Source: a virus
Lineage: Duplodnaviria; Caudoviricetes
Length of the DNA stretch: 56,984 bases
IMG/VR virus record: IMGVR_UViG_3300005326_000011
Span: 1 to 56,984 of that record
Strand: one strand, 5' to 3'
In this document: positions 38,114 through 53,329 of the stretch, one piece after another
Layout: the number at the start of each line of letters is the position of its first letter
How positions within the stretch are numbered: position 1 is the stretch's first letter
Translations under genes and position numbers: made by a program
The notes under the pieces: generated by a model
Told to the model about the DNA's origin: nothing
Seen by the model: the letters and a program-made list of their open reading frames with translations, nothing else
The model's database searches: none

Positions 38114-38187
38114 ATTATAACATAAGTTACCAAAAAAGTCAAGAGTAAGGTTACTCGCTTGACAATGATTGGTTTATGTGTTAAATT
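38114..38187. promoter_or_regulatory. Back-to-back divergent sigma70 promoters
   Basis: Minus: TTGACT(38142)-N17-TATAAT. Plus: TTGACA(38159)-N17-TAAATT. Both TG-extended and leaderless. Confidence 0.75.
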
Positions 38188-38192
38188 TTGTT

Positions 38193-38399
38193 ATGGACTT
38201 AAATCAAATGATTAAACTTCATCAGGGGGATAAAGAGATAGAACTTCCACTTATAAACATTCTTCGTATTAATTTTATTCATATGAATAGACTTAAGGAA
38301 GAATGGCAAAAAGCAAATCAAGATAATAACGTGAATAATTTCTGGCTTTATTTAAAGCGTAAATTAGGAATAACTGAGGGGTCTAAAATTTTATTATAA
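38193..38399 (+). CDS. Hypothetical protein
   Basis: ATG just after the promoter. Confidence 0.55.
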   Translation: MDLNQMIKLHQGDKEIELPLINILRINFIHMNRLKEEWQKANQDNNVNNFWLYLKRKLGITEGSKILL

Positions 38400-38400
38400 T

Positions 38401-38709
38401 ATGGAAAATATAGAGAAACAAAAAGAGATATTGGTTAAATTCGCTGAGGCAATTAAAAATTTTCAAGAAGCACTTCGTTTAGCTGGAATGTCTGAAACGT
38501 CAATTTTATACAATACAATAAATCTTCCTGATTTTGATAAAATGTTACCTGACGATGTAATTAAGTTTTATCATCAAGTTAAGGAAATGGTTGTTTTATA
38601 TTTTAATAGTCTTTCATTGTCAAGGCGTGAAATTGAAAGACGGCTTGGGGCTCACTCAAGAGTTTATGTCAAAGAAGTTATTGATAAACAGAAAAAAATT
38701 ATAAGTTAA
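38401..38709 (+). CDS. Putative HTH protein
   Basis: LSRREIERRLG..SRVYVKEVI. Confidence 0.55.
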   Translation: MENIEKQKEILVKFAEAIKNFQEALRLAGMSETSILYNTINLPDFDKMLPDDVIKFYHQVKEMVVLYFNSLSLSRREIERRLGAHSRVYVKEVIDKQKKIIS

Positions 38710-38718
38710 TTTAATTCT

Positions 38719-38931
38719 ATGGCGAACGTATATGCAAGGTCATTACCTCTTGTTCCCTATAAAAGAATGTGTGATTTAAAAGCTCCAGGTCATAATCAAA
38801 TTATTATGCCCAATAAACCTGCTTATCAGATAACCTCAGGTATAGCTCAGGGGATTTATCATAATAGTAGATGTTATGATGTGGCACGGCGTCACTATGA
38901 AAAATTAAAAGCTCAGTTAAATTTAAAATAA
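38719..38931 (+). CDS. Hypothetical protein, possibly metal-binding
   Basis: C..H..YH..C pattern. Confidence 0.5.
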   Translation: MANVYARSLPLVPYKRMCDLKAPGHNQIIMPNKPAYQITSGIAQGIYHNSRCYDVARRHYEKLKAQLNLK

Positions 38932-38932
38932 C

Positions 38933-39166
38933 ATGCAGACAATGTGGATGATAGATACAACTGGTTCACCAAAATATGTAGTAAGTCAGTATATTGACCA
39001 AAAAAAAGCAGAGGGTTGGGTTATTATGGATGTTCGGGAATTTAAAAGTGATGGGACTCCGAAACAGACATACTATCCCCAATATGATCGTCAAAATCCA
39101 ATAAGCAAAGTTAAGGTTGACGCACAGGAAATAAACGCTGAGATTTTACAAACAGATATATTTTAA
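38933..39166 (+). CDS. Hypothetical protein
   Basis: Operonic ORF. Confidence 0.55.
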   Translation: MQTMWMIDTTGSPKYVVSQYIDQKKAEGWVIMDVREFKSDGTPKQTYYPQYDRQNPISKVKVDAQEINAEILQTDIF

Positions 39167-39167
39167 T

Positions 39168-40286
39168 ATGACAAGTATAAAATATTGTGGGTCATTTCTT
39201 GATTCATCAGGCTATGGTTCAGCTAATCGTGCCTTTATTGCTGCTTTATTTATTGCAGGAGTTGATGTGACAACTGAACTTGCAGTTCATATGAAAGAGC
39301 AAGTAAATGTTCACTGGACTGGAGAACTTGCAATAAACCTTAAAAATAGAAATATTTCATATCAGGTAAAAATTATTCATTTAACACCAGATTTGTATGA
39401 GAATTATGTAGAAAAAGGAAAATATAATATTGGACATTTGTTTTGGGAAGTAGATAAACTTCCACAAGACTGGGTTGATAAGTGTAATCGAATGGATGAG
39501 ATATGGACTTCATCTGCCCACATGGTTGAACTTTTTAAAAGTTGTGGTGTTAAGGTTCCAGTTTATGCTTTTGCTCAGCCCATAGATATTTCTATGGCTG
39601 ATAAAGACTATAAAAAGTATGCACTTATTGGACATACTGGACTTTTATTTTATTCCATTTTTCAATGGATTGAAAGGAAAAATCCAAAACTTCTTCTTAA
39701 AGCATTTTGGGAAGCATTTGAGGGACATGATGATGTATCTCTTCTTCTTAAAACTTTTCGTTTATCTTATGACCAATCGGAATTTGATAAGATAAGAAAT
39801 GATATTTGGGAATGGAAAAGAGAGATGGGAAAAGGAATTTTTCCAAAAGTTTATCTTACGTCAAAGGCTATGCATCATGATGAGATTATGAGAGTTCATA
39901 GGACTGGTGATGTATTTGTACTTCCCCATAGAGGTGAGGGTTGGAACAGATGTATTGCCGAGTCACTTCTTATGGGTAATGTAGTTACAGCAACCGCTCG
40001 TGGTGGAATTCATGAGTATTTACGAGATGAGCATTACTTTGGACTTCCAAGTAAAATGGTTCCTGTAACTGAGGTTCCTTGGATTAAGTTCTATACAAAA
40101 GATCAAAATTGGGCTGAGGCTGATAAAGAATATTTAATTAAAACTATGAAATATATTTATAAAAATTATGAACTTTGTAAAGCTAAGGGAATTACAGCAC
40201 GTGAATATGTTAAGGAGAATTTTAATTATTATAAAATTGGTTACCTCATGAGAGAGCGACTTGAGGAGATTTATAAAAAATTATGA
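39168..40286 (+). CDS. GT-B (GT4-like) glycosyltransferase
   Basis: DSSGYG, WIERKNP and FVLPHRGEGW...ES. Confidence 0.9.
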   Translation: MTSIKYCGSFLDSSGYGSANRAFIAALFIAGVDVTTELAVHMKEQVNVHWTGELAINLKNRNISYQVKIIHLTPDLYENYVEKGKYNIGHLFWEVDKLPQDWVDKCNRMDEIWTSSAHMVELFKSCGVKVPVYAFAQPIDISMADKDYKKYALIGHTGLLFYSIFQWIERKNPKLLLKAFWEAFEGHDDVSLLLKTFRLSYDQSEFDKIRNDIWEWKREMGKGIFPKVYLTSKAMHHDEIMRVHRTGDVFVLPHRGEGWNRCIAESLLMGNVVTATARGGIHEYLRDEHYFGLPSKMVPVTEVPWIKFYTKDQNWAEADKEYLIKTMKYIYKNYELCKAKGITAREYVKENFNYYKIGYLMRERLEEIYKKL

Positions 40287-40630
40287 AGATTAGAGATAAT
40301 AAGGGAAGATTTATAAAAGGACATCCTCGATTAGGTGGTGTTTTATTTAAGAAAGGCTCTATCCCTTGGAATAAGAATGGTAATCAACCACAGACAGCAA
40401 AAGAAAAAGCATATAATTGGAAAGGTGATAGTGTTAAATATAGAGGTTTACATATGTGGATTTCTAATAATTTAGGTAAGGCAAAAAAATGTTCAAATAA
40501 TATAAAACATATATCTACTCGTTATCATTGGGTAAATATTAATCATACATATAAAAGAAATTTTAATGATTGGATTGAACTATGTCCATCTTGTCATAGA
40601 TTATATGATAATGGAAAAATAATATTATGA
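40283..40630 (+). CDS. Small HNH/His-Cys endonuclease with NUMOD3-like N-terminus
   Basis: GRFIKGH, PWNK, NWKGD.V.YRGLH.W and DWIELCPSCH. Confidence 0.8.
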   Translation: MKIRDNKGRFIKGHPRLGGVLFKKGSIPWNKNGNQPQTAKEKAYNWKGDSVKYRGLHMWISNNLGKAKKCSNNIKHISTRYHWVNINHTYKRNFNDWIELCPSCHRLYDNGKIIL

Positions 40631-41646
40631 AGATACATTACTTAAGTTGTCATTCTATTTTAGAATATGATGAAGCATCTCTTTTTACAGAATTAGGACA
40701 TGATGTTTTTTGTAATGGTGTATATCTTGATCCAAAAGGACATATTGATTTACCAAGACCTGGCATTAGTGGAATGACACATCATACAGAATATGTAGAA
40801 TTAGCTCAAAAATTTGCTAAAACAAATCTTCCAAAAGAATTAATAGATCCATTTGATATTATATTTGTTGCTCATCAGCCTGAATGGGTAACTGAAAACT
40901 GGGAAAGAATGAAACATAAAAAAGTTATTTGGCGAAGTATTGGTCAATCAACAAGAACTGTTGAGAATATGATTAGAAAATGTAGATATGAGGGGCTTAA
41001 AATTGTTAGATATTCTCCAATGGAACAAAATATTCCAGATTATTTAGGAGCTGATGCGATAATTCGTTTTTATAAAGATCCTAAGGAATTTGGAAATTAT
41101 AACGGTAATGAAAAAAGAGTTATTAATTTTACTCAAACATTAAAAGGAAGACGTTTATTTTGTCATTACGATCATATTATGGCAATGGTTGAGGGATTTC
41201 CTGCAATGATTTATGGGTCAGGAAATGATGACCTTGGTCCACTTAACGGAGGGAAAATTCCTTATGATTTAATGAAGGGAGCACTTCGGGATAATCGAGT
41301 ATTTATTTATGGTGGAACATGGCCTGCCTCATATACTTTAACTTTAATTGAGGCGATGATGACTGGAACCCCCGTTGTTACAATTGGTCGGAAAATGGCG
41401 ACTGAAATTCCTGAGCTTGCAACAGCTGAGGTTGGTAATTTCTTTGAACTTCCAAATATCATAACAAATGAACAGAATGGATTTATGTATGATGATATTG
41501 GGTCTTTACGAAATGCAATTCATAAATTACTTGAAGATCACACATTGGCTAAAAAAATTGGTCAAAAGGGAAGAGAAAAGGCGGTTGAGCTTTTTGGCAA
41601 GGATAAAATAAAGGGGGAATGGAATAAATTTTTAAATTCTATATGA
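40627..41646 (+). CDS. GT-B (GT4-like) glycosyltransferase
   Basis: LIEAMMTGTPVV, NEQNGF and IGQKGRE.A.ELF. Confidence 0.85.
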   Translation: MKIHYLSCHSILEYDEASLFTELGHDVFCNGVYLDPKGHIDLPRPGISGMTHHTEYVELAQKFAKTNLPKELIDPFDIIFVAHQPEWVTENWERMKHKKVIWRSIGQSTRTVENMIRKCRYEGLKIVRYSPMEQNIPDYLGADAIIRFYKDPKEFGNYNGNEKRVINFTQTLKGRRLFCHYDHIMAMVEGFPAMIYGSGNDDLGPLNGGKIPYDLMKGALRDNRVFIYGGTWPASYTLTLIEAMMTGTPVVTIGRKMATEIPELATAEVGNFFELPNIITNEQNGFMYDDIGSLRNAIHKLLEDHTLAKKIGQKGREKAVELFGKDKIKGEWNKFLNSI

Positions 41647-42044
41647 TAATTTTAAAACCATTGGATTTGCGAGATATTGAATGGGCAAGGATTTTAAGAA
41701 ATAAATATAAGAAATATTTTGATGATAAAGAAATTTCTCAGACAGATCAAAATAGATGGTATAAAAGGTATATATATAAAAAGAATTATGAATTTTATGT
41801 TATTGTTAAAGATGATAAAAATATAGGAACGGTTTCTTTACTTGTGACTGATAAGTATGTAAAAATAGGTGATTTAATTACAGAAGTTGAAGATACTAAT
41901 TTATTTAAGGAAATAATTGAAGAGATAGATAAAAAATATAAATGTCCATATATGCTTGATATGACAGAAAATAATTCTTATTTACTGAAAATTATTCAAA
42001 AAATGGGATTTATTACAAAAGTTATAAGTTTATATAAAAAATGA
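41643..42044 (+). CDS. GNAT acetyltransferase (PseH-like)
   Basis: LKPL..RDIE..RILRN, IS..DQ.RWY, IGTVSL and KMGF. Confidence 0.65.
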   Translation: MIILKPLDLRDIEWARILRNKYKKYFDDKEISQTDQNRWYKRYIYKKNYEFYVIVKDDKNIGTVSLLVTDKYVKIGDLITEVEDTNLFKEIIEEIDKKYKCPYMLDMTENNSYLLKIIQKMGFITKVISLYKK

Positions 42045-42685
42045 TTACAAAATATTTTGAAGAGATATTAGGTCAAAAAACAGTTCCTGAGGTCACTGAT
42101 AATAGATATAAAATGTTTGATGATGGAGGTGTTGAGGCTGAACTTGGTGATTTTCTATATGGATTAGTTCGAGTAGTTAAACCAAAAAATGTTCTTGAAA
42201 CGGGACTTTATTCAGGAATTAGTGCTTCGTATATGGCAAAGGGACTTCAAGACAATGGAGAGGGACATCTAATTTCAATAGAGTTTGAAGCTATGCATGT
42301 AGAACGAGCAAAATCCAGATTATTAAAATTAAACCTCCTTCCATATGTAACAGTCGAACACACATCTTCATTAACTTTTAATCCACAAAATACCTTTCAA
42401 ATTATTCTTCTTGATACTGAGCCAAATATTCGTTTTCAAGAACTTGTGAGATATTTTCCGTATTTAGATGAAGGTGGATTTATGTTTATCCATGACCTTC
42501 CAAGAAATATGTGTCAGGGTAATTTTAACACAGATCATCCAGAAATCAAGTCTTGGCCATTTGGAGATATCCCTTCTGAAATGAAAAAGTTATTTGATGA
42601 GAAGAAACTTATTAGATTTCATTTACCATCACCTCGTGGGATGGTAGGGCTATATAAACCACGCAAAGATGATTATGGATATTAA
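42041..42685 (+). CDS. Class I SAM O-methyltransferase
   Basis: KPKNVLETGLYSGIS and GGFMFIHD. Confidence 0.85.
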   Translation: MITKYFEEILGQKTVPEVTDNRYKMFDDGGVEAELGDFLYGLVRVVKPKNVLETGLYSGISASYMAKGLQDNGEGHLISIEFEAMHVERAKSRLLKLNLLPYVTVEHTSSLTFNPQNTFQIILLDTEPNIRFQELVRYFPYLDEGGFMFIHDLPRNMCQGNFNTDHPEIKSWPFGDIPSEMKKLFDEKKLIRFHLPSPRGMVGLYKPRKDDYGY

Positions 42686-43205
42686 ACAGATAGTTGCAGA
42701 AAGCAGAGCCAGTATTGTCAAAAGTGACCTTGAAGTATTACTTAATATGGCTAAGTCTTTTGATATAAGAAATATTCTTGAGATTGGAACATGGAAAGGT
42801 TATTCGGCTGAAGTTTGGATTAAGGCATTTTTTCCAAATAAATTTGTGACTATTGAAAAAGAACCTAAGTTTTCTGATGCTGTTGAAATTAAAAACATTA
42901 ATCATAAATATTTTTGGAATACGAATTCTCATAGTAATGAAATCAAATTTAATACAGAGCTTTATGACTTTTTATTTATTGACGGAGATCATTCTTATGG
43001 GGGGGTAAAAAAAGACTTTGAGATGTATAGTCCACTTGTTAAAAAAGGTGGTCTTATTGTATTTCATGATATAATTTATGTTTCAAACGATGTAAATGCT
43101 CCAGTTCAAGTAAAATTTCTTTGGGATGAATTAAAGTTAAAATATAATTATTTAGAAATTAAAACCGACCAGAGTTCAACTGGTATGGGAGTATTATTTA
43201 TTTAA
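42669..43205 (+). CDS. Class I SAM methyltransferase (Methyltransf_24-like)
   Basis: ILEIGTWKG, FIDGDHSY and GGLIVFHD. Confidence 0.9.
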   Translation: MIMDIKQIVAESRASIVKSDLEVLLNMAKSFDIRNILEIGTWKGYSAEVWIKAFFPNKFVTIEKEPKFSDAVEIKNINHKYFWNTNSHSNEIKFNTELYDFLFIDGDHSYGGVKKDFEMYSPLVKKGGLIVFHDIIYVSNDVNAPVQVKFLWDELKLKYNYLEIKTDQSSTGMGVLFI

Positions 43206-43220
43206 AAGGAGGAAAATAAA

Positions 43221-43622
43221 TTGGCAGACGAACAGCATTGGTGTGGTGCTAAATTAGTCAATGTAACTCCCGATAAAACTCTATATCCTGATATTGCAGA
43301 GGGAGTTGGAATTAGTGGAATGATAGATTGTCAGGGAAAAGTGACTATTGAGAAAGATGTCTTTTCAGGACATGACATTATGATTTTGACAGGAAGTCAT
43401 AATTATCTTGCCTTTGGATATGAAAGAAGAAGGCAGGGTGTAATTAAGCCCGTTTTGATTAAGGAGGGAGCATGGCTTTGCACAAGATGTATTATCTTAC
43501 AAGGAGTAACAGTTGGTCGTCATGCTGTAATTGGAGCAGGTTCTATTGTTACAAAAGATGTTCCTGATTATGAGTTCTGGGCTGGTAACCCAGCAAAATT
43601 AATAAAAGTTATACCACATTAA
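43221..43622 (+). CDS. Hexapeptide-repeat sugar O-acetyltransferase
   Basis: GVTVGRHAVIGAGSIVTKDVP..AGNPAK. Confidence 0.9.
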   Translation: MADEQHWCGAKLVNVTPDKTLYPDIAEGVGISGMIDCQGKVTIEKDVFSGHDIMILTGSHNYLAFGYERRRQGVIKPVLIKEGAWLCTRCIILQGVTVGRHAVIGAGSIVTKDVPDYEFWAGNPAKLIKVIPH

Positions 43623-43627
43623 TTTAT

Positions 43628-43693
43628 ATGAAAATTCTTATAACAGTTAATAAAATAGATTTGACAAGAGCTGGTTTTATTAGTAGTATGTAG
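43628..43693 (+). pseudogene. Decayed duplicate of the epimerase N-terminus, now overlapping the HNH promoter
   Basis: MKILIT(VNKIDLT)RAGFISSM* versus MKILITGCAGFIGSNM; contains TTGACA-N17-TAGTAT. Confidence 0.65.
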
Positions 43694-43695
43694 GA

Positions 43696-44088
43696 ATGAA
43701 GAATTATTCTTTAGGAAAAAAATGTTTAGATTGCGGGAAGAATAAGTCTGATAGAGGAAATTATTGTAAGAAATGCGGATATAAGTATAGAGTTAGACCA
43801 AAGGGATTAAAGTATAAAATTGTAGTTGTTAATAAGGGTTGGTTTGAAAATAAGGGAGGTTGGATTGATGAAAGTGGATATAGAAAAATACGGATAAATG
43901 GGAAGCAAATTAGGGAGCATGTTTACATATTGGAAAAACATTTAGGAAGAAAACTTTTAAAAAGTGAAGTTTCTCATCATATAAACGGAGATAAATTAGA
44001 TAATAGAATAGAAAATTTACAAGTTGTTTCTAAAAAGAAACATGATAAGTTTCATCATTATAAATTTAGGAAAGGTTTAATTATATGA
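43696..44088 (+). CDS. HNH endonuclease
   Basis: CLDC..CKKC and REHVYILEKHLGRKL..HHINGDKLDNRIENL. Confidence 0.9.
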   Translation: MKNYSLGKKCLDCGKNKSDRGNYCKKCGYKYRVRPKGLKYKIVVVNKGWFENKGGWIDESGYRKIRINGKQIREHVYILEKHLGRKLLKSEVSHHINGDKLDNRIENLQVVSKKKHDKFHHYKFRKGLII

Positions 44089-45140
44089 AGATACTCATAA
44101 CGGGTTGTGCAGGATTTATCGGGAGCAATATGTCAGTTGAGGCAATTAGTCGTGGTCATTCAGTAGTTGCTTTTGATAATTTATGGCGACCTGATGTTTC
44201 AGATAATGTTAAATATATGAAGAAAAAGTATGGAGATAAGTATGAGTTTATTTGGGGAGATGTAAGAAATCCAGAGGATTTAGAGAAAGTTCCAGAAGTT
44301 GACGCTGTAATTCATCTGGCTGCAAATCCTGGAGCAATCTCATCGGTCTATTTTCCAATATATGATTTTAGAAGTAATGCGATGGGAACATTTAATGTTT
44401 GTGAATTTGTACGAAAAAGAGGGTTAAAGATGATTTATGCATCAACCACTAAAACAATGTCAGACATTATGAATACTTTCCCAATGGTTGAAACAGATAA
44501 AAGAATGGATCCAACAAGAGGAGAATACCCTGATGTTACAAAAGTAGGATTGGATTTTGAGGGCGGGAAGGCAGTTGCAGTTAATGATAAATTTCCAATT
44601 GATGGATTTGGAAAGTGGGGACATTCTCCTTATGGAATATCAAAACTAACTGGAGAGTTATATGTTCAAGAATTTCATGTAACATTTAAAGTGCCTGTTG
44701 TTATTTTTAGAATGAGCTGTATTTATGGAATATTTCAAAAGGGAATAGAGGAGCAAGGTTGGGTAGCATGGTTTTTGAAACAGATTAAAAATGGTGATGG
44801 AAAGATTAACATATTTGGTAATGGTAAACAAGTAAGAGATGTGCTTGATGGTCGGGATGTAGCCAGAATTTATTTAAGAGCTCTTGATAATATAGATACA
44901 GTTAATGGAGAAATATTTACAGTAGGTGGTGGAGTGAAATATAACTATTCATTACTTGAGGTAATTTCCAAAATTGAGGAAATGACAGGTAAGAAAGCCC
45001 AATTAACTTTTAAGGATAAGCGACCAGCTGACGGAGATTGGTATGTGTCAAGTAACAAAAAAGCTAAAGAGTTGTTAAATTGGGAGCCTGAGATTGGATT
45101 AGAACAGGCACTAAAGGACATGATTCAATCTTATGAGTAG
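44085..45140 (+). CDS. NAD-dependent nucleotide-sugar epimerase, CDP-paratose 2-epimerase (RfbE)-like
   Basis: TGCAGFIG, PYGISK, FRMSCIYG..Q.G..QGWVAWF and GKQVRDVL. Confidence 0.85.
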   Translation: MKILITGCAGFIGSNMSVEAISRGHSVVAFDNLWRPDVSDNVKYMKKKYGDKYEFIWGDVRNPEDLEKVPEVDAVIHLAANPGAISSVYFPIYDFRSNAMGTFNVCEFVRKRGLKMIYASTTKTMSDIMNTFPMVETDKRMDPTRGEYPDVTKVGLDFEGGKAVAVNDKFPIDGFGKWGHSPYGISKLTGELYVQEFHVTFKVPVVIFRMSCIYGIFQKGIEEQGWVAWFLKQIKNGDGKINIFGNGKQVRDVLDGRDVARIYLRALDNIDTVNGEIFTVGGGVKYNYSLLEVISKIEEMTGKKAQLTFKDKRPADGDWYVSSNKKAKELLNWEPEIGLEQALKDMIQSYE

Positions 45141-45969
45141 AGCAATTATTACATCAATGCATTGTTATACCCCTTGGGGTAGAGATTATTATCAACCCAT
45201 TGAGGATTATTTTATTGGGAACTTAACTAAGTATAAAGATGAATTTGACCATTTATATATATTAGACTCCCAGTGGGGATTCGAACCACTTCCTGAATGG
45301 ATAACTGTGATTAAGACCAATCCTTCAGTTCGTTACTATGACGCTTATAAACAAGTATTACCAGATATAAAAGAAGAAGAGGTGTTGTTTTTAGATAATG
45401 ATTTTGTTATTTATAAGCCAGGAGTGATTAGTATGATTTTTGGGTGGCTTAAGGAATATGGAGTAGCTTCTATTTTTGATACGATTGGAGATTTTAAGAC
45501 AGATAAAATGAATGGAAAAAATAAGCTGTGTCCATATTTTTTTGCAAGTAGCAAGAAATTACTTATGAATTATCTTGATGTAGATTGGGGAAATCATATG
45601 CCTCATTCTGAAACATTGGGGCTATTAACAGAGGAGATGCTTAAAGATAATATAAAACTTTGGGAGATGCAGGAGGATAAATCTAACTTTTTATTTGGTG
45701 AAACACTTGGGAGTAGACGAAGTAAAAACTTCGGATATTATCATGTTCGTAGTGGTTCAACTCCAGCATATCTACTTTCTCATAGACAAAGAGGGGATAG
45801 GCAGTATACAGATTATCTTAAAAATCAACCAAAGAGCGAATATCTTCGTCAAATGGCTTGGTATCAGATAATGGGTGGAGACGTTGATTCTCTTATTGGA
45901 GATTTGGTTATAGGTATAAATGAGTGGAGTGAATATATTAAGAATTTTAAGATATTTCATGGACTTTGA
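45133..45969 (+). CDS. GT-A-like glycosyltransferase paralog 1
   Basis: LFLDND and GYYHVR. Confidence 0.6.
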   Translation: MSRAIITSMHCYTPWGRDYYQPIEDYFIGNLTKYKDEFDHLYILDSQWGFEPLPEWITVIKTNPSVRYYDAYKQVLPDIKEEEVLFLDNDFVIYKPGVISMIFGWLKEYGVASIFDTIGDFKTDKMNGKNKLCPYFFASSKKLLMNYLDVDWGNHMPHSETLGLLTEEMLKDNIKLWEMQEDKSNFLFGETLGSRRSKNFGYYHVRSGSTPAYLLSHRQRGDRQYTDYLKNQPKSEYLRQMAWYQIMGGDVDSLIGDLVIGINEWSEYIKNFKIFHGL

Positions 45970-46050
45970 TTACCCACCAATTTTAGAAATAATTATTTAT
46001 ATATTAGTTTGGATGTTGATATTTTATTTATTACCATTACCATCAATAAA

Positions 46051-46248
46051 ATGAAAAAAACATTAGGAGAATTGATTGACTGTTTAAGTGTAACTAATAT
46101 AAAAATATTTATGTTGGTAGAAAAAGTTCAAAAGAACGAACATACTAAAGAAGAGGCTAAAAAAATTCAGGACTTAAATAGATATCGTTCAGAGCTTACT
46201 AATGCTATTAATGAATTTAATAATGAAAGGAAAGAAATAAAATTATGA
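46051..46248 (+). CDS. Small coiled-coil protein of glycan clusters (DUF4254/DUF6165-like)
   Basis: TLGELID.LS..NIK...LN..RS.L...IN. Confidence 0.55.
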   Translation: MKKTLGELIDCLSVTNIKIFMLVEKVQKNEHTKEEAKKIQDLNRYRSELTNAINEFNNERKEIKL

Positions 46249-47177
46249 GTAGAGCTTATATTACGACATTTCATAATTATAGTGAGCCATTTCATACAGA
46301 TTATTATAAAGTTTTTTATGATTATTTTGTAGCTCAGTTTAATTTATGGTGTGATTTGGTAGATACAGTTTATATTATAGACACTAATTGGAACTTTACG
46401 GAAGATGATAAAAAACGATTAACTGATATTAAAAAGGAAGTTGTGTTTTATAAATCGCCAATTCAAGGTCATCATAATAAACAGTATCAGGAATTTCTCC
46501 CTCAGATTAAAGAAGATGAAATGCTTTTTATGGATAATGATGTATTTATAACTAAAAGATTTGGAATAAGCGATTGGTTTTTTAAAGCACAAAATAAGGA
46601 GGCTGTAATCAGTTGGTTTGGTTATCAATCATCTAAGTATCCACAAGGAGCAATTAAAGATCCACTATGGAATAAATATCCGTTTTTAAAAGAAAGAGAT
46701 GTTGTGTTTATGGAAAGTTGTCATTTTTTATTAACTAAAAAACTTTTAAAAAGAATAGGAAAGGATTTAGATTTTATGAATTATCAACCATTTAAGGAGG
46801 GGACATATATTAAGGATTTTGATTATCATACTAAAAAAGGTGATTGGTGTGAGTTTTTTGGACTTTTAGGATATCAGATATTGTCTGGCAATAATTGGGC
46901 TGAGATGCCAACAAGTGAGTATGGTTGGGGATATTATCATGTTAGAGCTTGTAGTTATGTATATTTACTTTTAAGTTATAAGAAATTAGGCTTACCTCAA
47001 TATGGTGATTTTTTAAAGAATTTTAAGAAAGAAGATATTATTGAAAGGTTGGTTTGGTTTTATATTTTAGATAAGAATGGGAAATATCATAAAGAATTAT
47101 TTGAGATTGTAAAAGATTTTGAAATAGAACTTGGTGAATTTAAAAATAAAGTTTATCAATTAGAACAGAAGATATGA
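46245..47177 (+). CDS. GT-A-like glycosyltransferase paralog 2
   Basis: LFMDND and GYYHVR; MSRA.IT..H.Y N-terminus shared with paralog 1. Confidence 0.6.
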   Translation: MSRAYITTFHNYSEPFHTDYYKVFYDYFVAQFNLWCDLVDTVYIIDTNWNFTEDDKKRLTDIKKEVVFYKSPIQGHHNKQYQEFLPQIKEDEMLFMDNDVFITKRFGISDWFFKAQNKEAVISWFGYQSSKYPQGAIKDPLWNKYPFLKERDVVFMESCHFLLTKKLLKRIGKDLDFMNYQPFKEGTYIKDFDYHTKKGDWCEFFGLLGYQILSGNNWAEMPTSEYGWGYYHVRACSYVYLLLSYKKLGLPQYGDFLKNFKKEDIIERLVWFYILDKNGKYHKELFEIVKDFEIELGEFKNKVYQLEQKI

Positions 47178-48154
47178 GTAAAAGAGCTGTAATTTTAGGT
47201 ACTGGCGCATTTCCATTAATACTTCGTCTTTGGCTTGAAATGCTTAAAAAATGGCAGGATGAGGTAGATGTTGTTTATATAGCTATTGATAATTATAATG
47301 TTCCATCAAGTAGAGAATATATTTTAAATTTAGTTAAACAATTTTCTAAAGTTAAATTACTTGAGGAGTTAAGAGGTTGGCCTAATTCTTATGCTGATGT
47401 TATTAAACAAAGTAATGCAGATACATTTCTTATTATGCATGATGATGCGTTTGTTTATAAAAAAGGAATAGTTGATAAGTATTTTAAGATAGCTGAGGAG
47501 GGGAAAGTAGTAACTCAAAGACATGGAATTTATGAACCATCAGATATTGTCAATGAGGCTCTTCAGAAAAAATATGGTTGGACTAATGATATTGCCCCAT
47601 ATTCATTTTTACTTTATTTTCTTTTTATATCTCGTCTTAATTTGGAGAAAACAACTATGAATTTTAATGGTATAGGTTGGCAAGCGGGAGATAATATTCC
47701 TCTTCTTGGGATTAAAAATGCTCCAGTATCAATTGCTGGAGATACGGGATTTCTTTTGGGACTTGAGTTATTTGAAAAGCAGGTTCCATTTCACTTTATT
47801 CCCCGAAGTGAAACATCAGGGTTAGTTCAAGAACTAAATCCAATTCGTTTTCTTATTGAACAAATGAAAGATAAACAGGGGATATTTAAACATGGTTGGT
47901 TACATTTACAAAATACAGGAAATACTATTCCTTTATGGTTTAAACAAGATATAGACGCACATCCGTGGCACGGTAACATAGAGAAAATAAGGCTTGCTTG
48001 GATGTATACAATGCTCCAGTTTGATTATAGTGAAATTCCTGATTTTAAATATCAAGCTGATGAAATATTTAAAGGAGTAATGGTAAGATGTGGACTTGAT
48101 ATTGAAGAGATAAAAATTATTAGTAATATTTTTCAAATACTTTTATATGGGTAA
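47174..48154 (+). CDS. GT-A-like glycosyltransferase paralog 3
   Basis: IMHDDAFVYKKG and WLHL. Confidence 0.6.
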   Translation: MSKRAVILGTGAFPLILRLWLEMLKKWQDEVDVVYIAIDNYNVPSSREYILNLVKQFSKVKLLEELRGWPNSYADVIKQSNADTFLIMHDDAFVYKKGIVDKYFKIAEEGKVVTQRHGIYEPSDIVNEALQKKYGWTNDIAPYSFLLYFLFISRLNLEKTTMNFNGIGWQAGDNIPLLGIKNAPVSIAGDTGFLLGLELFEKQVPFHFIPRSETSGLVQELNPIRFLIEQMKDKQGIFKHGWLHLQNTGNTIPLWFKQDIDAHPWHGNIEKIRLAWMYTMLQFDYSEIPDFKYQADEIFKGVMVRCGLDIEEIKIISNIFQILLYG

Positions 48155-49124
48155 ATCTGCTCTTTTAAGTACTTGCGGAGATCCATTCATTTTACTTCTT
48201 GGGATTAAGTTGTGGAAGGAGAGATGGTATGATGAGATAGATAATTTATATATTAATTACAATAATCATTGTCAAATTCCATATAACATAGTAACGGAGT
48301 GTTTTTCAAGATTAAATGATAAAAAGATTCATTTAATTTATCATCCCTCAGGAATTGGAAATGGACCTCCTCAGGTTGAGAATTTGCTTATTGCAAAAGA
48401 GGATTTGGTTTTACTTCTTGAAGATGATTTTTACATATTTACAAAAGGTATAGTTAGTGGGTATTTTAAAAAGATTGAAAGTGGAGAATGTGATTTACTT
48501 GGATCACCCCGTTATACATATGGTGAAGTAGCCGATAGTGCAAAGAAAAAATACAATCTTGATTATAATGGTGAGGGAGATCGTGGTTTTGGTTGGTGGC
48601 CAACTGGATTTTATTGTAAGCGTAAAGATTTATTAAAAACTGATTTGGATTTTGGTAGTAAGAAATATAGTCGGGGAGAGTATTTTAAAGAGCTTGATTA
48701 TACATTTAAAGAAGATAATTATACTGATACTTTTACTTGGACTTCAGTTCAACTTCGAGCTATGGGGCTTAAAGCTATTGAAATTCCCCAATATCACGCT
48801 GATGTTTATGAGATTGAAAGTAAGCAAAAAGGTATAATGAATTGGAGAAATGGTAATCCACCATATATTCATGGGGGTAGTCTCTCTGCGGGATGGGGGG
48901 GCTACCTTTCGGGTCGACTTCCTGACGTATCTCATGTTGCCGCCAAACAGGAAATAGAAACAAGATGTGCTTTTTGGAAGATAGCCTCAGATGTAGTTGA
49001 GGGGTTTGAACAATTTAAAGACCAATATCGAAGCGGGATAGAAAATCTTATTATCTCATGTTCTCTTGATCGTGATAGAATAAACACAAAGATTAAAATT
49101 TATAAAACATTAATGAATTTATGA
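48147..49124 (+). CDS. GT-A-like glycosyltransferase paralog 4
   Basis: LLEDDFYIF.KG and YIHGG. Confidence 0.6.
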   Translation: MGKSALLSTCGDPFILLLGIKLWKERWYDEIDNLYINYNNHCQIPYNIVTECFSRLNDKKIHLIYHPSGIGNGPPQVENLLIAKEDLVLLLEDDFYIFTKGIVSGYFKKIESGECDLLGSPRYTYGEVADSAKKKYNLDYNGEGDRGFGWWPTGFYCKRKDLLKTDLDFGSKKYSRGEYFKELDYTFKEDNYTDTFTWTSVQLRAMGLKAIEIPQYHADVYEIESKQKGIMNWRNGNPPYIHGGSLSAGWGGYLSGRLPDVSHVAAKQEIETRCAFWKIASDVVEGFEQFKDQYRSGIENLIISCSLDRDRINTKIKIYKTLMNL

Positions 49125-49924
49125 AACCTGATCTTTTATTGACACAAATCAAACATGCGGATTATCCAGTCTTTAGGCTTTTTCTTAAAAGACATAGTAA
49201 TTTTTTTAATAAGATTATTGTTTATTTTAGTGAACATAATCGGTTTCCTTATTTTGACCATTTTATTCAAACAGCGATTAAGGAAGATGTTTATGAGATA
49301 TTTGATTATCCAGAGATAGTATTTCTTGATCCAGTTTTGACTGATTGGGGACGTGAGGACTGGCGAAATAAATCAACAAATGAAATGCTTAAGTATTCAA
49401 CTTCAGATTGGGTTTGTTCGGTGGAGCAGGATTTTTTTGCAAAAGATTGGGATAAGTTGTTAAGTAGTGTAGGTGAGGCTATGAAGACATATGATTTAGT
49501 TGGTTGGTGGCAGGAGAATAATAAATACATTCATCCGTCATTTTGGTTTATAAAGCGAGAATTACTTGAGAAGACAAATAAAGATTTTTCAGCTCGTGAC
49601 GGACATGACCATTTTGGTTGGATTACAAAAGATGTTGAGAGATTGGGTGGTAAAATTAAATCTACTCAAGATATGGGATTTAAGGATTTTGAAAATTGTT
49701 TCCATTTAGGAGGAGTTAATCAGAATTATCTTGAGGGATTAAAGCCTGAATTTGTATTTCATAGACCTGATTGGTTTTATATCTATAACTATTGGTGTCG
49801 CAAGGCAGACGTTATGCAATCTCCGTTGTTTACAGAGATATCATTAAAAGTTGAGGATAGACTAAAGAAAATGTTTCCTCAAATTAATCCAGAGACAGAC
49901 AATCGGGCTATATATTTTAAATGA
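49121..49924 (+). CDS. GT-A-like glycosyltransferase paralog 5
   Basis: HADYP, DWR, VEQDFF, HPSF and FHLGG. Confidence 0.6.
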   Translation: MKPDLLLTQIKHADYPVFRLFLKRHSNFFNKIIVYFSEHNRFPYFDHFIQTAIKEDVYEIFDYPEIVFLDPVLTDWGREDWRNKSTNEMLKYSTSDWVCSVEQDFFAKDWDKLLSSVGEAMKTYDLVGWWQENNKYIHPSFWFIKRELLEKTNKDFSARDGHDHFGWITKDVERLGGKIKSTQDMGFKDFENCFHLGGVNQNYLEGLKPEFVFHRPDWFYIYNYWCRKADVMQSPLFTEISLKVEDRLKKMFPQINPETDNRAIYFK

Positions 49925-50661
49925 ATATAACACTTTTAACAGTTTGGCCAACCCATGCAGATTATCCAATATTTAGGCGTTGGCTTGAGAGAAATAGAAA
50001 CAAATTTCATCATTGTATCATGGCGTTAAGTGATGCAAAACATCCTCGCAATATCTCAAATGATTTAAAACAACTATTTGTTAAGTTGAAAGTTCAGTGG
50101 ACTGACCCACCTACAGTTGGGGGGACAGATGATTGGCGAAGCAAGGCAATAAACTCGGCTTATTATCAGATAAAAGGAGACTGGATATTATTTATGGAGC
50201 AGGACTTTTTCATTAAAGATAAGGCATTAGATTTGATTTTATTACAAGCTGAAAAATATGATGGAATTGTATATAAAGAGGGAGAGAGGCTACATCCAGC
50301 ATTTCTTTTGGTTCGTAAATCAATAGCTGATAAAACTTCCAAAGACTTTGCTGTAGTTAGGGATAAATTTGATCATTTTTATACCTTTATTCAAGAGATA
50401 ATGAAAATGGGGAAGATTATTACATTAAATGACATTGGATTGAAAAATAATGAAGATTATTATCATATGTCAGGGCTTACTCAAAATTACCATATGTTTA
50501 GTCTTGGACAAACACCAACTCATTTGAATGAATTTTTACAGTACAATTATTACTGTATGGATGTTATATCACAAGTTGAACCATTTTATTATGTTTTATG
50601 TCAAATTAATCAAAAATTGGGTCGTGGAATTGAAAATCAAATTACAAGTTTTTTTAAATAA
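49921..50661 (+). CDS. GT-A-like glycosyltransferase paralog 6
   Basis: HADYP, DWR, MEQDFF, HPAF and YYHMSG. Confidence 0.6.
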   Translation: MNITLLTVWPTHADYPIFRRWLERNRNKFHHCIMALSDAKHPRNISNDLKQLFVKLKVQWTDPPTVGGTDDWRSKAINSAYYQIKGDWILFMEQDFFIKDKALDLILLQAEKYDGIVYKEGERLHPAFLLVRKSIADKTSKDFAVVRDKFDHFYTFIQEIMKMGKIITLNDIGLKNNEDYYHMSGLTQNYHMFSLGQTPTHLNEFLQYNYYCMDVISQVEPFYYVLCQINQKLGRGIENQITSFFK

Positions 50662-50665
50662 AATT

Positions 50666-51157
50666 ATGAGTAATAGGAAAATAAAATTTCATCATAAGAA
50701 AAGATGGACTGATAAAGAACTTAATATTTTAAGGATATATTATCCTATTTATGGATTTAAAAAGGTATCAGAATTGACTGGTAGACAAAGAGGATCTATA
50801 AATAAGATAGCAACAAGATTTAAAATAAAAGTAGATTATTCTATATTTAGTCATCCAACAAAAGGAAAAAAGAGATATAATCTTTGTAATGAAAGAAATG
50901 GACAATGGAAGGGTGATAAGGTTGGATATACAGCCCTTCATAATTATGTTAAAAGAAGATTAAAAAGACCTATTATTTGTCAAAAATGTTTAAAAATTTC
51001 ACGTGTTGATTTAGCAAATATAAGTGGAAAATATAAAAGAGATTTATCAGATTGGGAGTGGTTATGTCGTAAATGTCATATGGAAAAAGATGGTAGACTT
51101 TATAAATTGGTTAAAACAAATCATAAAAAATATGATGTACTGCAACCTTTGCTCTAA
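50666..51157 (+). CDS. HTH plus HNH/His-Cys endonuclease, same family as 40283
   Basis: RWTDKEL, QWKGD.VGY.ALH, CQKC and DWEWLCRKCH. Confidence 0.8.
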   Translation: MSNRKIKFHHKKRWTDKELNILRIYYPIYGFKKVSELTGRQRGSINKIATRFKIKVDYSIFSHPTKGKKRYNLCNERNGQWKGDKVGYTALHNYVKRRLKRPIICQKCLKISRVDLANISGKYKRDLSDWEWLCRKCHMEKDGRLYKLVKTNHKKYDVLQPLL

Positions 51158-51605
51158 TTTTGTAGAAACAGTTCAAACGCCAGTTGAGCTTCGGGCGCAT
51201 ATTAAACAAATTCATACTCAAGCAAGACTTGATGCTTTTAAAATTCCAGCTTCTAAACTCAAAGAGATTGAAGCAACTAAATCTAATGAAACACCGCTTT
51301 CTGAAAGAAAGATAGTAGTTCAAGAGGGTCAGGCTCCAAAAGTAATAGATGTACCACTTCCACCAACTCCAATTACTCTTGATTATAAATATAGTGGGCA
51401 GTGTCCTGATTGTCGGTGTGAAGTAAAGACATTACAAGTTAAACTTGGTAATGATTTAATTATAGTTTGCTACTGTCTATCGTGTGATAAAAAGATAACA
51501 GAGCAAATTGTTTTTCCAATAGATGTTCAAATTCAACTTATTCAAAAAGCCCAAAGCGTGGGAGATAGTAACTCAGGTGCTTCTGATGTTAAAAAGAGAA
51601 GCTAA
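51132..51605 (+). CDS. Zinc-finger protein (C2H2-like plus Cys4)
   Basis: CNLC..H...H and CPDC..CLSC. Confidence 0.55.
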   Translation: MMYCNLCSNFVETVQTPVELRAHIKQIHTQARLDAFKIPASKLKEIEATKSNETPLSERKIVVQEGQAPKVIDVPLPPTPITLDYKYSGQCPDCRCEVKTLQVKLGNDLIIVCYCLSCDKKITEQIVFPIDVQIQLIQKAQSVGDSNSGASDVKKRS

Positions 51606-52281
51606 AATAGGAATTAGTACTCTTGAGCTTAATCAGATGGCTGAAAAACTTATTCTTGAGCTTGGTGGTATACCATATAATAAAGGATATAAACCCTCAT
51701 GGGCAAAGTCTGCTTATCCATATGCAACCTGTATTGGTGTGAATGAATGTATCGCTCATGGATTTCCAACGACCTATAATCTAAAAGATGGTGATTTAGT
51801 ATCATTTGATTTAGGGGTTAAAAAGGATGGATTATGTGGTGATGGGGCAATAACTATACCCATTGGTAATATTAGCAGACAAGATGAGAGATTGCTAAGG
51901 ATTGCCTATAATAGTTTAATAGCTGGACTTTCTAAGGTTAAAGCTGGAGCGTTTATTCGAGATATTTCGTCAGAAATGGAGGGAGTTGCACTGCGACAAG
52001 ATTTTGTTGTTAATAAGATATTTATGGGTCATGGTATAGGAAAGGACATGCATGAAGCCCCAAACATACCAAATTATTATATATATAAAAATGAAGAACA
52101 ATTGATTGAGGGGCAAATGATTTGTCTTGAACCAATGGTTACTAAAAAAGATAATTGCGGGATATATATAAATGACTGGACTGTTATAACTCGTGATGGA
52201 AAAAAATCAGCAGTTTTTGAAGTTCAGGTAAAGGTGGAAAAAAACGGATATAAATTACTTACAACTCATCTTAATGGCTAA
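51523..52281 (+). CDS. map: Methionine aminopeptidase type I
   Basis: CIGVNE.IAHG.P, DGDLVSFDLG, GD.A.T, GHGIG..MHE.P and LEPM; the usual EH motif reads EV. Confidence 0.9.
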   Translation: MFKFNLFKKPKAWEIVTQVLLMLKREAKIGISTLELNQMAEKLILELGGIPYNKGYKPSWAKSAYPYATCIGVNECIAHGFPTTYNLKDGDLVSFDLGVKKDGLCGDGAITIPIGNISRQDERLLRIAYNSLIAGLSKVKAGAFIRDISSEMEGVALRQDFVVNKIFMGHGIGKDMHEAPNIPNYYIYKNEEQLIEGQMICLEPMVTKKDNCGIYINDWTVITRDGKKSAVFEVQVKVEKNGYKLLTTHLNG

Positions 52282-53329
52282 TATATTTATTGATCTTCAT
52301 CATTCTGGACTTGCCTATTCATTTTACTTAACTTTGGAAAAACGATTAGGCCATAAGATATATTTTCCAATTGGAATGGAATGGGAACAATCTGGTTATT
52401 GGTTACTTCATAAACCATATAACTATAATAAAGATACAGCTCGTCAATATTTGGATTTGCGAGATTGTTATATTCCGTCAGATGGGACGCCCCCATTAAC
52501 AACTATTGACAAGAAACTCTCAACTCATTTTGAAATTAAAGACCTTGCCCATAACTACATAAGAAAACATTTAACCCTTGAACAGTTTAAACAAATGGAC
52601 ATAGATATTATAATTGCTTCAATTCCAGACCATGCTCACTCATTTTCAAAACTACTATTGGAATGTAAGCCAAAAGCTAAACTTGTATTTCAGATGGGCA
52701 ATATGTTTAATGAAGTTTACGATTTAATAAAATTAGAAGTTATAAAAAATCTATTAGCTTCAACTGTCAAATTTAATACTCCCAATAAGATTAATGTATG
52801 TTTTTATCATCAAGAGATAGATACAGACATATTTAAGCCCATAGAGCCTCAAAAAAGCAATATAATTTCATCTTTTGTAATAGGATTGCCAAAAGAACAA
52901 GAATTTTTAAATTATAAAAATGCTCTTCAACAATTTGATTTCAGGGCTTATGCTTCAAAATACTATCCCTTTATATCAACAATTTCAGAATTAGCGTCTC
53001 TTATGGTAAAATCACGCTTTGGTTATCATGTTAAACCACGGGGAGACGGATTTGGGCATATTATTTATAACTGGGCATATATAGGACGCCCAATAATCAC
53101 TCATTTTTGTGATTATAAAGATAAACTGGCAGGGGAATTGCTTGAGGATAATATAACAGCCATTGACCTTGATAATGGGACTATTGAGGAAAATAGTAAA
53201 CGAATTGCAAGTATTACAGACAATCAATATTTTAAAATGATAAGTAATATAAATAATAGAATTAGTTCAATCATAGATTATAAAATGGACGCAATCAATA
53301 TTAATAATTTTTTTAATAATTTAATTTAA
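52274..53329 (+). CDS. GT-B-like glycosyltransferase
   Basis: IDTDIFKP and GYHVKPRGDGFGH..GRPII. Confidence 0.7.
   Translation: MANIFIDLHHSGLAYSFYLTLEKRLGHKIYFPIGMEWEQSGYWLLHKPYNYNKDTARQYLDLRDCYIPSDGTPPLTTIDKKLSTHFEIKDLAHNYIRKHLTLEQFKQMDIDIIIASIPDHAHSFSKLLLECKPKAKLVFQMGNMFNEVYDLIKLEVIKNLLASTVKFNTPNKINVCFYHQEIDTDIFKPIEPQKSNIISSFVIGLPKEQEFLNYKNALQQFDFRAYASKYYPFISTISELASLMVKSRFGYHVKPRGDGFGHIIYNWAYIGRPIITHFCDYKDKLAGELLEDNITAIDLDNGTIEENSKRIASITDNQYFKMISNINNRISSIIDYKMDAININNFFNNLI

Follow-up and report, generated by a model that had tools for sequence, protein, structure and literature searches.

A translationally coupled operon of nine soluble glycosyltransferases in a 57-kb groundwater phage, possibly acting on the virion

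Why does a tailed phage of 57 kb carry nine glycosyltransferases (GTs)? The question is raised by a locus at positions 39168-53329 of the IMG/VR virus record IMGVR_UViG_3300005326_000011. The window, by which we mean the whole stretch of 56,984 bp that was analysed, is a complete virus record with direct terminal repeats (exact, 123 bp), and this genome is present in two groundwater metagenome DNA runs, with no RNA run listed. A preliminary description had read the locus as a soluble assembly line that builds a methylated and acetylated oligosaccharide on a cytoplasmic substrate, probably the virion. We show here that nine soluble GTs, a TyvE-like extended short-chain dehydrogenase/reductase (SDR), two O-methyltransferase-like enzymes and one hexapeptide acetyltransferase-like enzyme are encoded in a co-transcribed, translationally coupled operon. 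As to what this operon glycosylates, the reading that we favour is autonomous cytoplasmic glycosylation of virion proteins, to which we assign a probability of roughly 0.4. The genes on which the argument rests are the following, with their coordinates in the window.

39168-40286, plus strand: GTB1, a GT4-type GT-B glycosyltransferase (Glyco_trans_1_4, E 5.2e-7, 30.4 bits against a cut-off of 27; phrog_2170, glycosyltransferase, 7e-16).
40627-41646, plus strand: GTB2, a GT4-type GT-B glycosyltransferase and core gene (Glycos_transf_1, 27.4 bits against a cut-off of 26.4).
41643-42044, plus strand: protein of 133 amino acids (aa), a possible GNAT acetyltransferase (Acetyltransf_3, E 5e-3, 18 bits against a cut-off of 25.4; phrog_1249, 5.8e-4).
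42041-42685, plus strand: MT1, a class I S-adenosylmethionine (SAM) methyltransferase of the cation-dependent O-methyltransferase type (Methyltransf_24, 1.3e-8; Methyltransf_3, 4.4e-7; O-methyltransferases in the PDB, about 1e-5).
42669-43205, plus strand: MT2, a class I SAM O-methyltransferase-like protein, accessory (Methyltransf_24, 4.8e-16; 3ntv, 3e-8; 2gpy, 8.6e-8).
43221-43622, plus strand: hexapeptide (left-handed beta-helix) sugar O-acetyltransferase-like protein, accessory (Hexapep, 28.5 bits against a cut-off of 27).
44085-45140, plus strand: extended SDR nucleotide-sugar epimerase, closest to CDP-tyvelose 2-epimerase (RfbE/TyvE) (Epimerase, 1.2e-42).
45133-45969, plus strand: GTA1, GT-A-like, group A (blastp to GTA2, 2e-22; N-D motif of the DxD type in alignment A1).
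46245-47177, plus strand: GTA2, GT-A-like, group A (Atlas model, pTM 0.76; GT2, GT8 and Nucleotid_trans clusters at TM-scores of 0.49-0.71).
47174-48154, plus strand: GTA3, GT-A-like, group A (Glycos_transf_2, E 7e-3, below cut-off; blastp to GTA4, 6e-10).
48147-49124, plus strand: GTA4, GT-A-like, group A, a core gene with the highest conservation among the six (alignment A3: E-D-D motif, 46 invariant columns).
49121-49924, plus strand: GTA5, GT-A-like, group B (Atlas model, pTM 0.81; GT2 clusters at TM-scores of 0.56-0.74; E-Q-D motif).
49921-50661, plus strand: GTA6, GT-A-like, group B (blastp to GTA5, 32% identity, 2e-31).
52274-53329, plus strand: third GT-B glycosyltransferase ('last GT'), a core gene (no Pfam hit; AlphaFold2 (AF2) and Foldseek).

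That these genes form one coupled operon, as had been proposed, is borne out by their layout: all open reading frames (ORFs) between 39168 and 53329 lie on the plus strand, most of them overlapping by 4-17 bp or separated by gaps of at most 73 bp, and the plus-strand-only run of genes extends from 38.2 to 53.3 kb. The 'quarter of the genome' of the preliminary description holds for the span, which covers 24.9%, but the glycan genes proper amount to only 11,511 bp, or 20.2%. The cluster is real and intact, and its GC content (0.314, against 0.329 for the genome) and its codon usage, which correlates with that of the structural genes (r = 0.887), mark it as native to the phage. The alternative of a degenerate or foreign island was considered and ruled out by the intact ORFs, the conserved motifs and a composition matching that of the phage.

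The three GT-B enzymes that had been counted are all supported, GTB1 and GTB2 by Pfam and the last GT by structure prediction. An AF2 model of the last GT built with an alignment of 11 sequences (A4) reached a pLDDT of 88 and a pTM of 0.85 (single-sequence AF2: pLDDT 34.6), and its best Foldseek match in the PDB is 7qsg (E 1.3e-10), followed by HepE, BshA and PglA (TM-scores of 0.55-0.64), all pointing to a GT-B fold of the GT4 type, at identities of 8-15% that are generic for GT4. Its sequence profile matched 4xso among PDB sequences (E 0.009). None of its 436 homologs carries a Pfam domain, and its fold neighbours in BFVD are mostly giant-virus GT1-family proteins at 7-14% identity. By tblastn against 50,697 deposited phage records, neither GTB2 nor the last GT found a match, and GTB1 matched 143 records, mostly of Streptomyces phages at about 25% identity and none of a Mycobacterium phage; at about this level GTB1 also resembles GTs of Rhodococcus, Flavobacterium and Microcystis phages and of Sulfolobales viruses.

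The six GT-A-like proteins (45133-50661) fall into two paralog groups by blastp, A and B, which are joined by hhalign with a probability of 84.7% (E 6.7e-6). Atlas models of one member per group gave TM-scores of 0.5-0.74 to GT2/GT8 clusters, and a DxD-type motif is conserved across the paralog alignments in N-D, D-D and Q-D forms. The paralog family thus shows a GT-A fold with a DxD-type motif, and the Pfam GT2 cut-off is reached by none of the six, the sub-threshold match of GTA3 being the only Pfam hit among them. All six assignments are supported, mostly indirectly: GTA2 and GTA5 by their models, the other four through blastp and hhalign. Against PDB sequences, the profile of A1 gave no hit and that of A2 only SunS (E 0.089), which is not significant. 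GTA2, which belongs to no Pfam family, occurs among the records compared in this genome only, and GTA3 and GTA5 had no tblastn match in the phage records.

Among the tailoring enzymes, both SAM methyltransferases score above the Methyltransf_24 cut-off, and the hexapeptide acetyltransferase exceeds that of Hexapep; the latter is nearest to sugar acetyltransferases of the WcaF, NeuD and WbbJ types, its matches to the WcaF family (2e-18) and to NeuD/PglB/VioB (5e-15) both staying under the equivalog cut-offs. The epimerase is matched over its full length (residues 1-348) by 9rl0 (1.3e-55) and 1orr (3.4e-50), and the next-best family, UDP-glucose 4-epimerase, covers only half of it (5e-30). On this full-length similarity above other epimerases, sequence comparison places the protein in the RfbE/TyvE subfamily of extended SDRs, in agreement with its earlier naming as RfbE-like. 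The GNAT acetyltransferase at 41643-42044 was not confirmed: its Pfam and PHROG scores are weak, no PDB match is better than E 0.07 (best acetyltransferase, E 0.32), and blastp found no ortholog in the relatives at 1e-5.

How the locus varies was followed in two sets of relatives. G001 and G002 were retrieved by the portal protein, independently of the cluster; 13 further loci were retrieved by the GTA4 (A3) profile, of which 10 were analysed. As single-protein queries, GTA4 alone gave 2 loci and GTA2 found no related locus. The complete genome G001 (56.5 kb; portal 57% identical) retains GTB1, GTB2, MT1, the epimerase, four GT-A paralogs, a DUF4254-like ORF and the last GT, with a total of 7 GTs. 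G002 (a 28-kb fragment; portal 57% identical) is without GTB2, GTA2, GTA4 and the last GT, and its GTB1 (46% identical) is followed by a different cassette of three GT2-type genes (one below the Pfam cut-off), a Methyltransf_24 gene and another SDR. The recurring order is GTB1-GTB2-MT1-SDR-GTA1-GTA4-GTA5-GTA6-last GT, and a minimal form, GTB1-GTB2-GTA4-last GT, immediately precedes the terminase, portal and capsid genes in the same orientation (L030 and L032). Eight clusters are full-length in that they extend from GTB1 as far as the last GT, namely that of G001 and those of seven analysed GTA4-retrieved loci. All eight have GTB1, GTB2, GTA4 and the last GT (GTA4 by construction in seven); MT1, GTA1, GTA5 and GTA6 occur in seven each, and the TyvE-like epimerase in four, with other SDRs in three more.

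Orthologs of GTB1 (36-47% identity) were found in G001, G002, G007 and all 9 GTA4-retrieved loci that reach its position, which makes GTB1 the conserved anchor of the locus; it is also the candidate for its initiating enzyme. GTB2 is kept at 41-65% identity in 9 of the 10 GTA4-retrieved loci (L030 begins behind its position) and at 45% in G001, and the orthologs of GTA1 are 46-52% identical. Other genes are more scattered: GTA3 has an ortholog in L033 (35%), MT2 in L028 (52%) and L040 (47%), the hexapeptide enzyme in L031 (67%), and the epimerase in G001, L033, L039 and L040 (45-72%). L029 adds a DegT-family aminotransferase, a Methyltransf_24-formyltransferase fusion and an NDP-sugar C-methyltransferase, and other relatives add extra SDRs and methyltransferases. 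The methionine aminopeptidase listed further below, GTA2 and the weak GNAT occur in this genome only among the records compared, and its nine GTs are the largest set seen there. A conserved GTB1 followed by a replaceable cassette would fit, as far as gene content can tell, a conserved first enzyme that recognises the acceptor and a diversifying glycan behind it. A Thg1-like tRNA-His guanylyltransferase gene (Thg1, 6.9e-28) lies inside the glycan cluster of L033 (11356-12045).

The GT-A paralog profile matched 463 representative clusters among 1.84 billion (129 at E<=1e-30), and ten that were sampled are all on metagenome contigs of at most 38.5 kb and bear no functional name. GTA4 has 271 homologs at E<=1e-3, none functionally named, with identities of 53-80% among the 120 matches listed (own copy excluded). 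The longest contigs with GTA4 homologs measure 55-63 kb, relatives of the GT-A and last-GT families were found only on metagenome contigs of at most 63 kb, and a scan of 185,579 species genomes with the A3 pattern gave no relative. The six-paralog GT-A family and the last GT-B, neither of which has a Pfam model, are put forward as candidates for new CAZy-type families and as candidate glyco-engineering enzymes that work in the cytoplasm.

Is the acceptor a part of the virion? A link to the capsid comes from a sister lineage. G007 is a complete genome of 42.7 kb with an SPP1-type portal and a capsid protein 42% identical to that of the window. Besides the cluster, which takes up about 10.3 kb, it has one more Glycos_transf_1 gene (1.9e-16), located immediately behind the capsid gene and with its E-x7-E motif intact. 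The order scaffold-major capsid protein-GT is kept in 5/5 further loci, so that a GT4 gene stands behind the capsid gene in 6/6 loci of this lineage, and G013 (91% complete) has both the capsid-adjacent GT and a GTB2 homolog. Among the structural proteins of the window, the 20-residue stretch richest in Ser/Thr (12/20) lies in an SLT-domain protein (24387-25916; stretch at 25665-25826) and is encoded partly by three copies of a 27-nt repeat; judged from its composition, it is a possible, putative O-glycan acceptor.

Machinery for the known alternatives was searched for as well. A crude hydropathy scan found no transmembrane-like segment in the cluster enzymes, the nine GTs included, and no ORF of the genome with more than three such segments, in agreement with the earlier statement that no flippase, polymerase or Gtr-type membrane protein was recognised. 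Six-frame hidden Markov model (HMM) searches for the priming transferases PF02397 (WbaP-type) and PF00953 (WecA-type) were positive in 0/6 genomes each, and a search of this genome for a tyrosine integrase was negative (it did not extend to serine recombinases). The case against classic serotype conversion thus stands, neither a Gtr-type or polytopic membrane protein nor an integrase having been found. As for base hydroxymethylases, ThyA-like proteins (PF00303) were found in 0/10 cluster-bearing records, five of them at least 90% complete, and Tet_JBP (PF12851) likewise in 0/10, a weak absence since none of 14 control genomes gave a positive above cut-off; six-frame HMM searches for C5 methyltransferases (C5-MTases; PF00145) found none in the two complete genomes tested, this one and G001. 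With no 5-hydroxymethyl-pyrimidine route found in the ten records, the exclusion of T4-type DNA glucosylation is likewise upheld.

We favour virion proteins as the target because the membrane steps are missing in every genome, because there is no route to glycosylatable bases and no integrase in this genome, because the enzyme families were found only on phage-sized contigs, and because the sister lineage has a GT in its capsid operon. Under such a mechanism, the donors would be nucleotide sugars of the host, of which the phage SDR would re-epimerise one; GTB1 would start the glycan by placing its first sugar on a conserved acceptor of the phage itself, most likely a virion protein exposed on capsid or tail; the other GTs would extend the chain stepwise, and the methyl- and acetyltransferases would cap it. 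The variable genes behind GTB1 would then give each relative a different glycan, in a serotype-like manner, and the resulting coat would shield the particle or alter its surface.

Several observations weigh against virion glycosylation. The cluster of this genome lies outside the structural module, and in the lineage of the window what comes after the capsid gene is a conserved protein of 216 aa that is not a GT (8/8 portal-retrieved loci that hold it); none of the GT queries had a match in the 25 loci searched in this post-capsid check. The capsid protein has no long Ser/Thr tract. A sigma70-like divergent promoter pair at 38114-38187 (38142-38114 on the minus strand, 38159-38187 on the plus strand) is common to the operon and the presumed early minus-strand genes, which hints at early or middle rather than late expression, in a scan that overall is not above chance (125 promoter-like sites in the scanned region, 112.3 +/- 9.9 in shuffles), and no repeated promoter motif common to cluster and structural genes was found. 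MT1 matches a defence-system methyltransferase model, PADLOC mad2 (2.3e-9), the PADLOC scan giving nothing besides; in L039 and L032, genes for DNA N6/N4 methyltransferases are part of the cluster or adjoin it; and one relative, G009, has a tyrosine integrase. Finally, it is common for soluble GT4 and GT2 enzymes to use lipid-linked acceptors that the host has made, and the lack of membrane proteins is therefore compatible with an envelope target. The virion as target, as the preliminary description had it, thus gains circumstantial support from the GT4 behind the capsid gene of the sister lineage and from the conserved GTB1 with its replaced cassette, but the target itself is still inferred throughout.

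The main rival reading is a remodelling of the host envelope, which we consider possible, if doubtful. The GTs and tailoring enzymes would work on the inner side of the membrane, with a lipid carrier primed by the host, or teichoic acid, as their acceptor, and would rely on the priming transferase, flippase or ABC exporter, and ligase of the host, and the new surface glycan might block superinfection, free the progeny from debris or change cell-cell attachment. The gene content, with the aminotransferase, formyltransferase and C-methyltransferase of the relatives, is indeed that of O-antigen, capsule and S-layer loci minus the membrane steps; the acetyltransferase is closest to polysaccharide enzymes of the WcaF, WbbJ and NeuD types; and PglA, PimA and TarM, whose acceptors are lipid-linked or teichoic acids, are among the fold neighbours of the last GT. 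Passages in two groundwater virome papers take viral GTs and genes for O-antigen sugars to be auxiliary genes that act on the host surface (PMC11310336, PMC12911398), and this phage itself comes from groundwater metagenomes. The integrase of G009 and a promoter position compatible with early expression point the same way. However, the searches described above turned up a priming transferase, flippase, polymerase, ligase or Gtr protein in 0/6 genomes, the absence of an integrase from this genome speaks against lasting serotype conversion, and the sister lineage keeps its extra GT behind the capsid gene. The GT-A and last-GT families, moreover, were found only on contigs of phage size and not in the pattern search of species genomes, which disfavours a recent capture from a host envelope locus. 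If the envelope were the target after all, a probably virulent phage would be rewriting host surface glycans by soluble enzymes only.

Two further products of the operon appear less probable. A free or lipid-free methylated oligo- or polysaccharide, or a glycosylated host protein or small molecule, made for host takeover, we hold to be unlikely. Such a cytoplasmic product would be in keeping with 7qsg, a mannosyltransferase of the mycobacterial cytoplasmic methylmannose polysaccharide pathway, as best match of the last GT, with BshA, MshA and pterin glucosyltransferases, which have small-molecule acceptors, next among its matches, with enzymes that all appear soluble and with a methionine aminopeptidase in the operon; but these fold matches are generic for GT4, the aminopeptidase is absent from every relative compared, and the replacement of a cassette behind a conserved first GT looks like the result of outside selection, which is unexpected for an internal metabolite. 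Hypermodification of the DNA, in which the GTs would glycosylate phage bases against restriction as in T-even phages and in metavirome clusters for glycans on 5-hydroxymethylcytosine (5hmC), is in our view very improbable. A precedent exists, since phage GT-A and GT-B enzymes, sometimes with an epimerase, put mono- to trisaccharides on 5hmC according to excerpts of a metavirome study (bioRxiv 10.1101/2023.12.21.572611). Among the fold neighbours of the last GT, the T4 alpha-glucosyltransferase comes in as a distant one at rank 43, MT1 and MT2 have secondary matches to models labelled DNA methyltransferases, and L039 and L032 carry N6/N4 methyltransferase and ParB-methyltransferase genes in or beside the cluster. 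Against this stand the missing ThyA-like and Tet/JBP proteins and C5-MTases, with the weak Tet_JBP control noted above, and the combination of nine GTs with O-methylation and acetylation, which goes far beyond the mono- to trisaccharides that those excerpts describe on DNA. In the same excerpts, about 65% of GT contigs are without a base-modification partner, and contigs of this kind are judged less likely to act on DNA (bioRxiv 10.1101/2023.12.21.572611).

Six genes within the span, unrelated to glycans, had not been listed before: an HNH_3 gene, two Cys-rich paralogs, a DUF4254-like, a zinc-ribbon-like and a methionine aminopeptidase gene. Together with the ORFs at the head of the operon they are as follows.

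38169-38399 (doubtful, TTG start), 38401-38709, 38719-38931 and 38933-39166, plus strand: operon head, four small ORFs with no function assigned (ORF list).
40283-40630, plus strand: Cys-rich 115-aa protein, paralog of 50666-51157 (blastp to 50528-51157, 37% identity, E 5e-10).
43696-44088, plus strand: HNH homing-endonuclease gene inserted in the operon (HNH_3, 2.1e-10; 13 PHROG HNH families).
46009-46248, plus strand: DUF4254-like 79-aa protein, conserved in its place next to the GT-A genes (DUF4254, E 3.1e-5, 24.3 bits against a cut-off of 27).
50666-51157 (listed ORF start 50528; likely start 50666), plus strand: Cys-rich protein, paralog of 40283-40630 (blastp).
51132-51605 (listed start 51024; true start uncertain), plus strand: zinc-ribbon-like protein (Cys pairs in the translation).
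51586-52281, plus strand: type I methionine aminopeptidase (TIGR00500, 210.1 bits against a cut-off of 171.35; Peptidase_M24, 5.5e-35).

None of the four head ORFs belongs to a Pfam family, and the one of 77 aa has a 28%-identical counterpart before GTB1 in L028. The protein at 40283-40630 has no Pfam, PHROG or NCBIfam family; an HNH-like C-x2-C-H motif was noted in it by eye only, its homologs lie at other positions in L039, and it is probably a mobile endonuclease-like insert. Its paralog at 50666-51157 matches a PHROG annotated 'transcriptional regulator, D5-like' (3.2e-5) and no Pfam family. The DUF4254-like ORF has orthologs in G001 (65%) and G007 (52%), and homologs of the zinc-ribbon-like protein, which matched no Pfam family at E<=0.01, adjoin the last GT in G001, L031, L033 and L040. 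The start of the aminopeptidase was put at 51586 from a 231-aa database copy, and no counterpart of it was found in the relatives compared. In G007 the GTA1 ortholog (L038, 6965-8275) is split into pieces of 121 and 155 aa by an HNH_3/AP2 ORF, which is a homing-endonuclease insertion in a glycosyltransferase gene.

The rest of the genome is that of a tailed phage, arranged as follows.

0.2-27 kb, plus strand: terminase large subunit, portal, major capsid protein of the T7-like-podovirus type and tail proteins (tailed-phage module).
27-38 kb and 53-56 kb, minus strand: small, mostly unassignable genes, presumed early.

No close relative was found among the 50,697 deposited phage genomes (megablast, tblastn), and the phage genome yielded no tRNA gene. 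A domain search identified an M23 peptidase and the SLT-domain protein, and a phage with these peptidoglycan hydrolases would be expected to have a bacterial host. The label 'MAG: Nanoarchaeota archaeon' carried by a few homologs of GTA4 and the last GT was treated as a probable binning artefact because the phage carries these hydrolases. Among the tail genes, a concanavalin-A-like lectin is encoded at 19946-20656 (Laminin_G_3, 2.8e-15); such lectin-type proteins are reported, in the passages concerned of the groundwater virome papers, from phages assigned to CPR bacteria (PMC11310336, PMC12911398), which gives a weak hint, and to the host only.

Several mobile or repetitive elements were met on the way. 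The major capsid gene (7734-8831) is interrupted: its N-terminal part (7734-7841) and the remainder (8067-8831) share one reading frame, with 225 nt that contain in-frame stops between them, and the capsid genes of the relatives are continuous. The insert folds at -53.6 kcal/mol, against -34.7 +/- 4.6 for shuffles (z -4.15), and has no match in Rfam at E<=0.1; a small self-splicing intron is the probable explanation. The terminase large subunit (733-3030) contains an intein (Intein_splicing, 1.4e-18, residues 46-316), LAGLIDADG inteins occur in the terminases of L032 and L033, and an antisense ORF in the terminase gene (1013-1552, minus strand) has an HNH_3 domain (2.7e-9) and homologs elsewhere in relatives. 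In the minus-strand blocks, a 12-nt unit is repeated 32.8 times in tandem with 92% matches (32688-33080) within an ORF of 419 aa (32040-33299, minus strand, DUF6745), where it would encode a long tetrapeptide repeat, and a conserved AT-rich motif of 39 nt (family D3) recurs in both blocks (29620-29658, 31043-31081 and 55090-55128), which may be a shared promoter of the presumed early genes.

How does this operon compare with known systems? Phage-encoded glycosylation is already known for DNA, for host O-antigen and for the virions of mycobacteriophages; what is new here is nine GTs on a fifth of a 57-kb genome, two GT families without a Pfam model whose known relatives are all metagenomic, and evidence that the cassette diversifies behind a conserved first enzyme. 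O-antigen, capsule and S-layer loci and the Gtr cassettes of prophages share its enzyme classes and a variation of the cassette between close relatives; in contrast to them, no priming phosphoglycosyltransferase, flippase, polymerase, ligase, GtrA/B-type protein or integrase was found here. The mycobacterial methylmannose polysaccharide pathway (ManT, 7qsg) likewise combines a soluble GT4 with O-methyltransferases to make a cytoplasmic methylated glycan, but it has one GT and a homopolymer as product, and the last GT is only 14% identical to ManT; we know of no link between this pathway and phages.

Autonomous glycosylation is a trait of giant viruses, as in the capsid glycans of the chlorovirus PBCV-1 and the fibril glycans of the Megavirinae. 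Like them, the phage encodes soluble GTs, nucleotide-sugar tailoring and methyl- and acyltransferases in gene sets that vary from clade to clade; unlike them, it is a tailed phage of 57 kb with an expected bacterial host, and the likeness is one of fold only, at 7-14% identity. Clusters for glycan hypermodification of DNA in metaviromes resemble the operon in their GT-A and GT-B enzymes, the occasional epimerase and the use of host nucleotide sugars, but are defined, in the excerpts cited, by a neighbouring ThyS homolog or by a C5-MT with a 5mYOX (bioRxiv 10.1101/2023.12.21.572611), none of which was found here.

The nearest parallel to the reading that we favour, glycosylation of the virion, lies in mycobacteriophages, where glycans are present on capsid and tail-tube proteins of Che8, Corndog and Myrna according to the relevant passages of two papers (PMC12363180 and PMC12619734, citing Freeman et al. 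2023). The likeness to giant viruses put forward in the preliminary description is a fair comparison of gene content, but with the mycobacteriophages as precedent, glycosylation of a phage virion is less unprecedented than was implied. In both cases a tailed phage has its own soluble GTs, and here too the proposed effect is that capsid or tail proteins receive a coat of glycan in the cytoplasm, with no need of membrane machinery. The operon differs in lying outside the structural module, and by tblastn of the phage records none of GTB1, GTB2, GTA3, GTA5 and the last GT matched a Mycobacterium phage (GTA1, GTA2, GTA4 and GTA6 were not searched in this way). We tentatively suggest, as an idea with the odds against it, that groundwater tailed phages possess a 'glycocalyx factory' of their own, in which GTB1 would mark a virion protein and a swappable cassette of up to eight further GTs and tailoring enzymes would build strain-specific glycans; if so, phage 'serotypes' would arise without membrane machinery, at a scale that only giant viruses have so far been known to reach. 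By its gene content, the present system comprises nine GTs, an epimerase, two methyltransferases and an acetyltransferase on about 20% of the genome. Should the virion prove to be the acceptor, no glycosylation system of a small tailed phage would be known to exceed this one, with its glycan diversification at a single phage locus, and it would extend virion glycosylation beyond actinobacteriophages to the abundant uncultured phages of groundwater.

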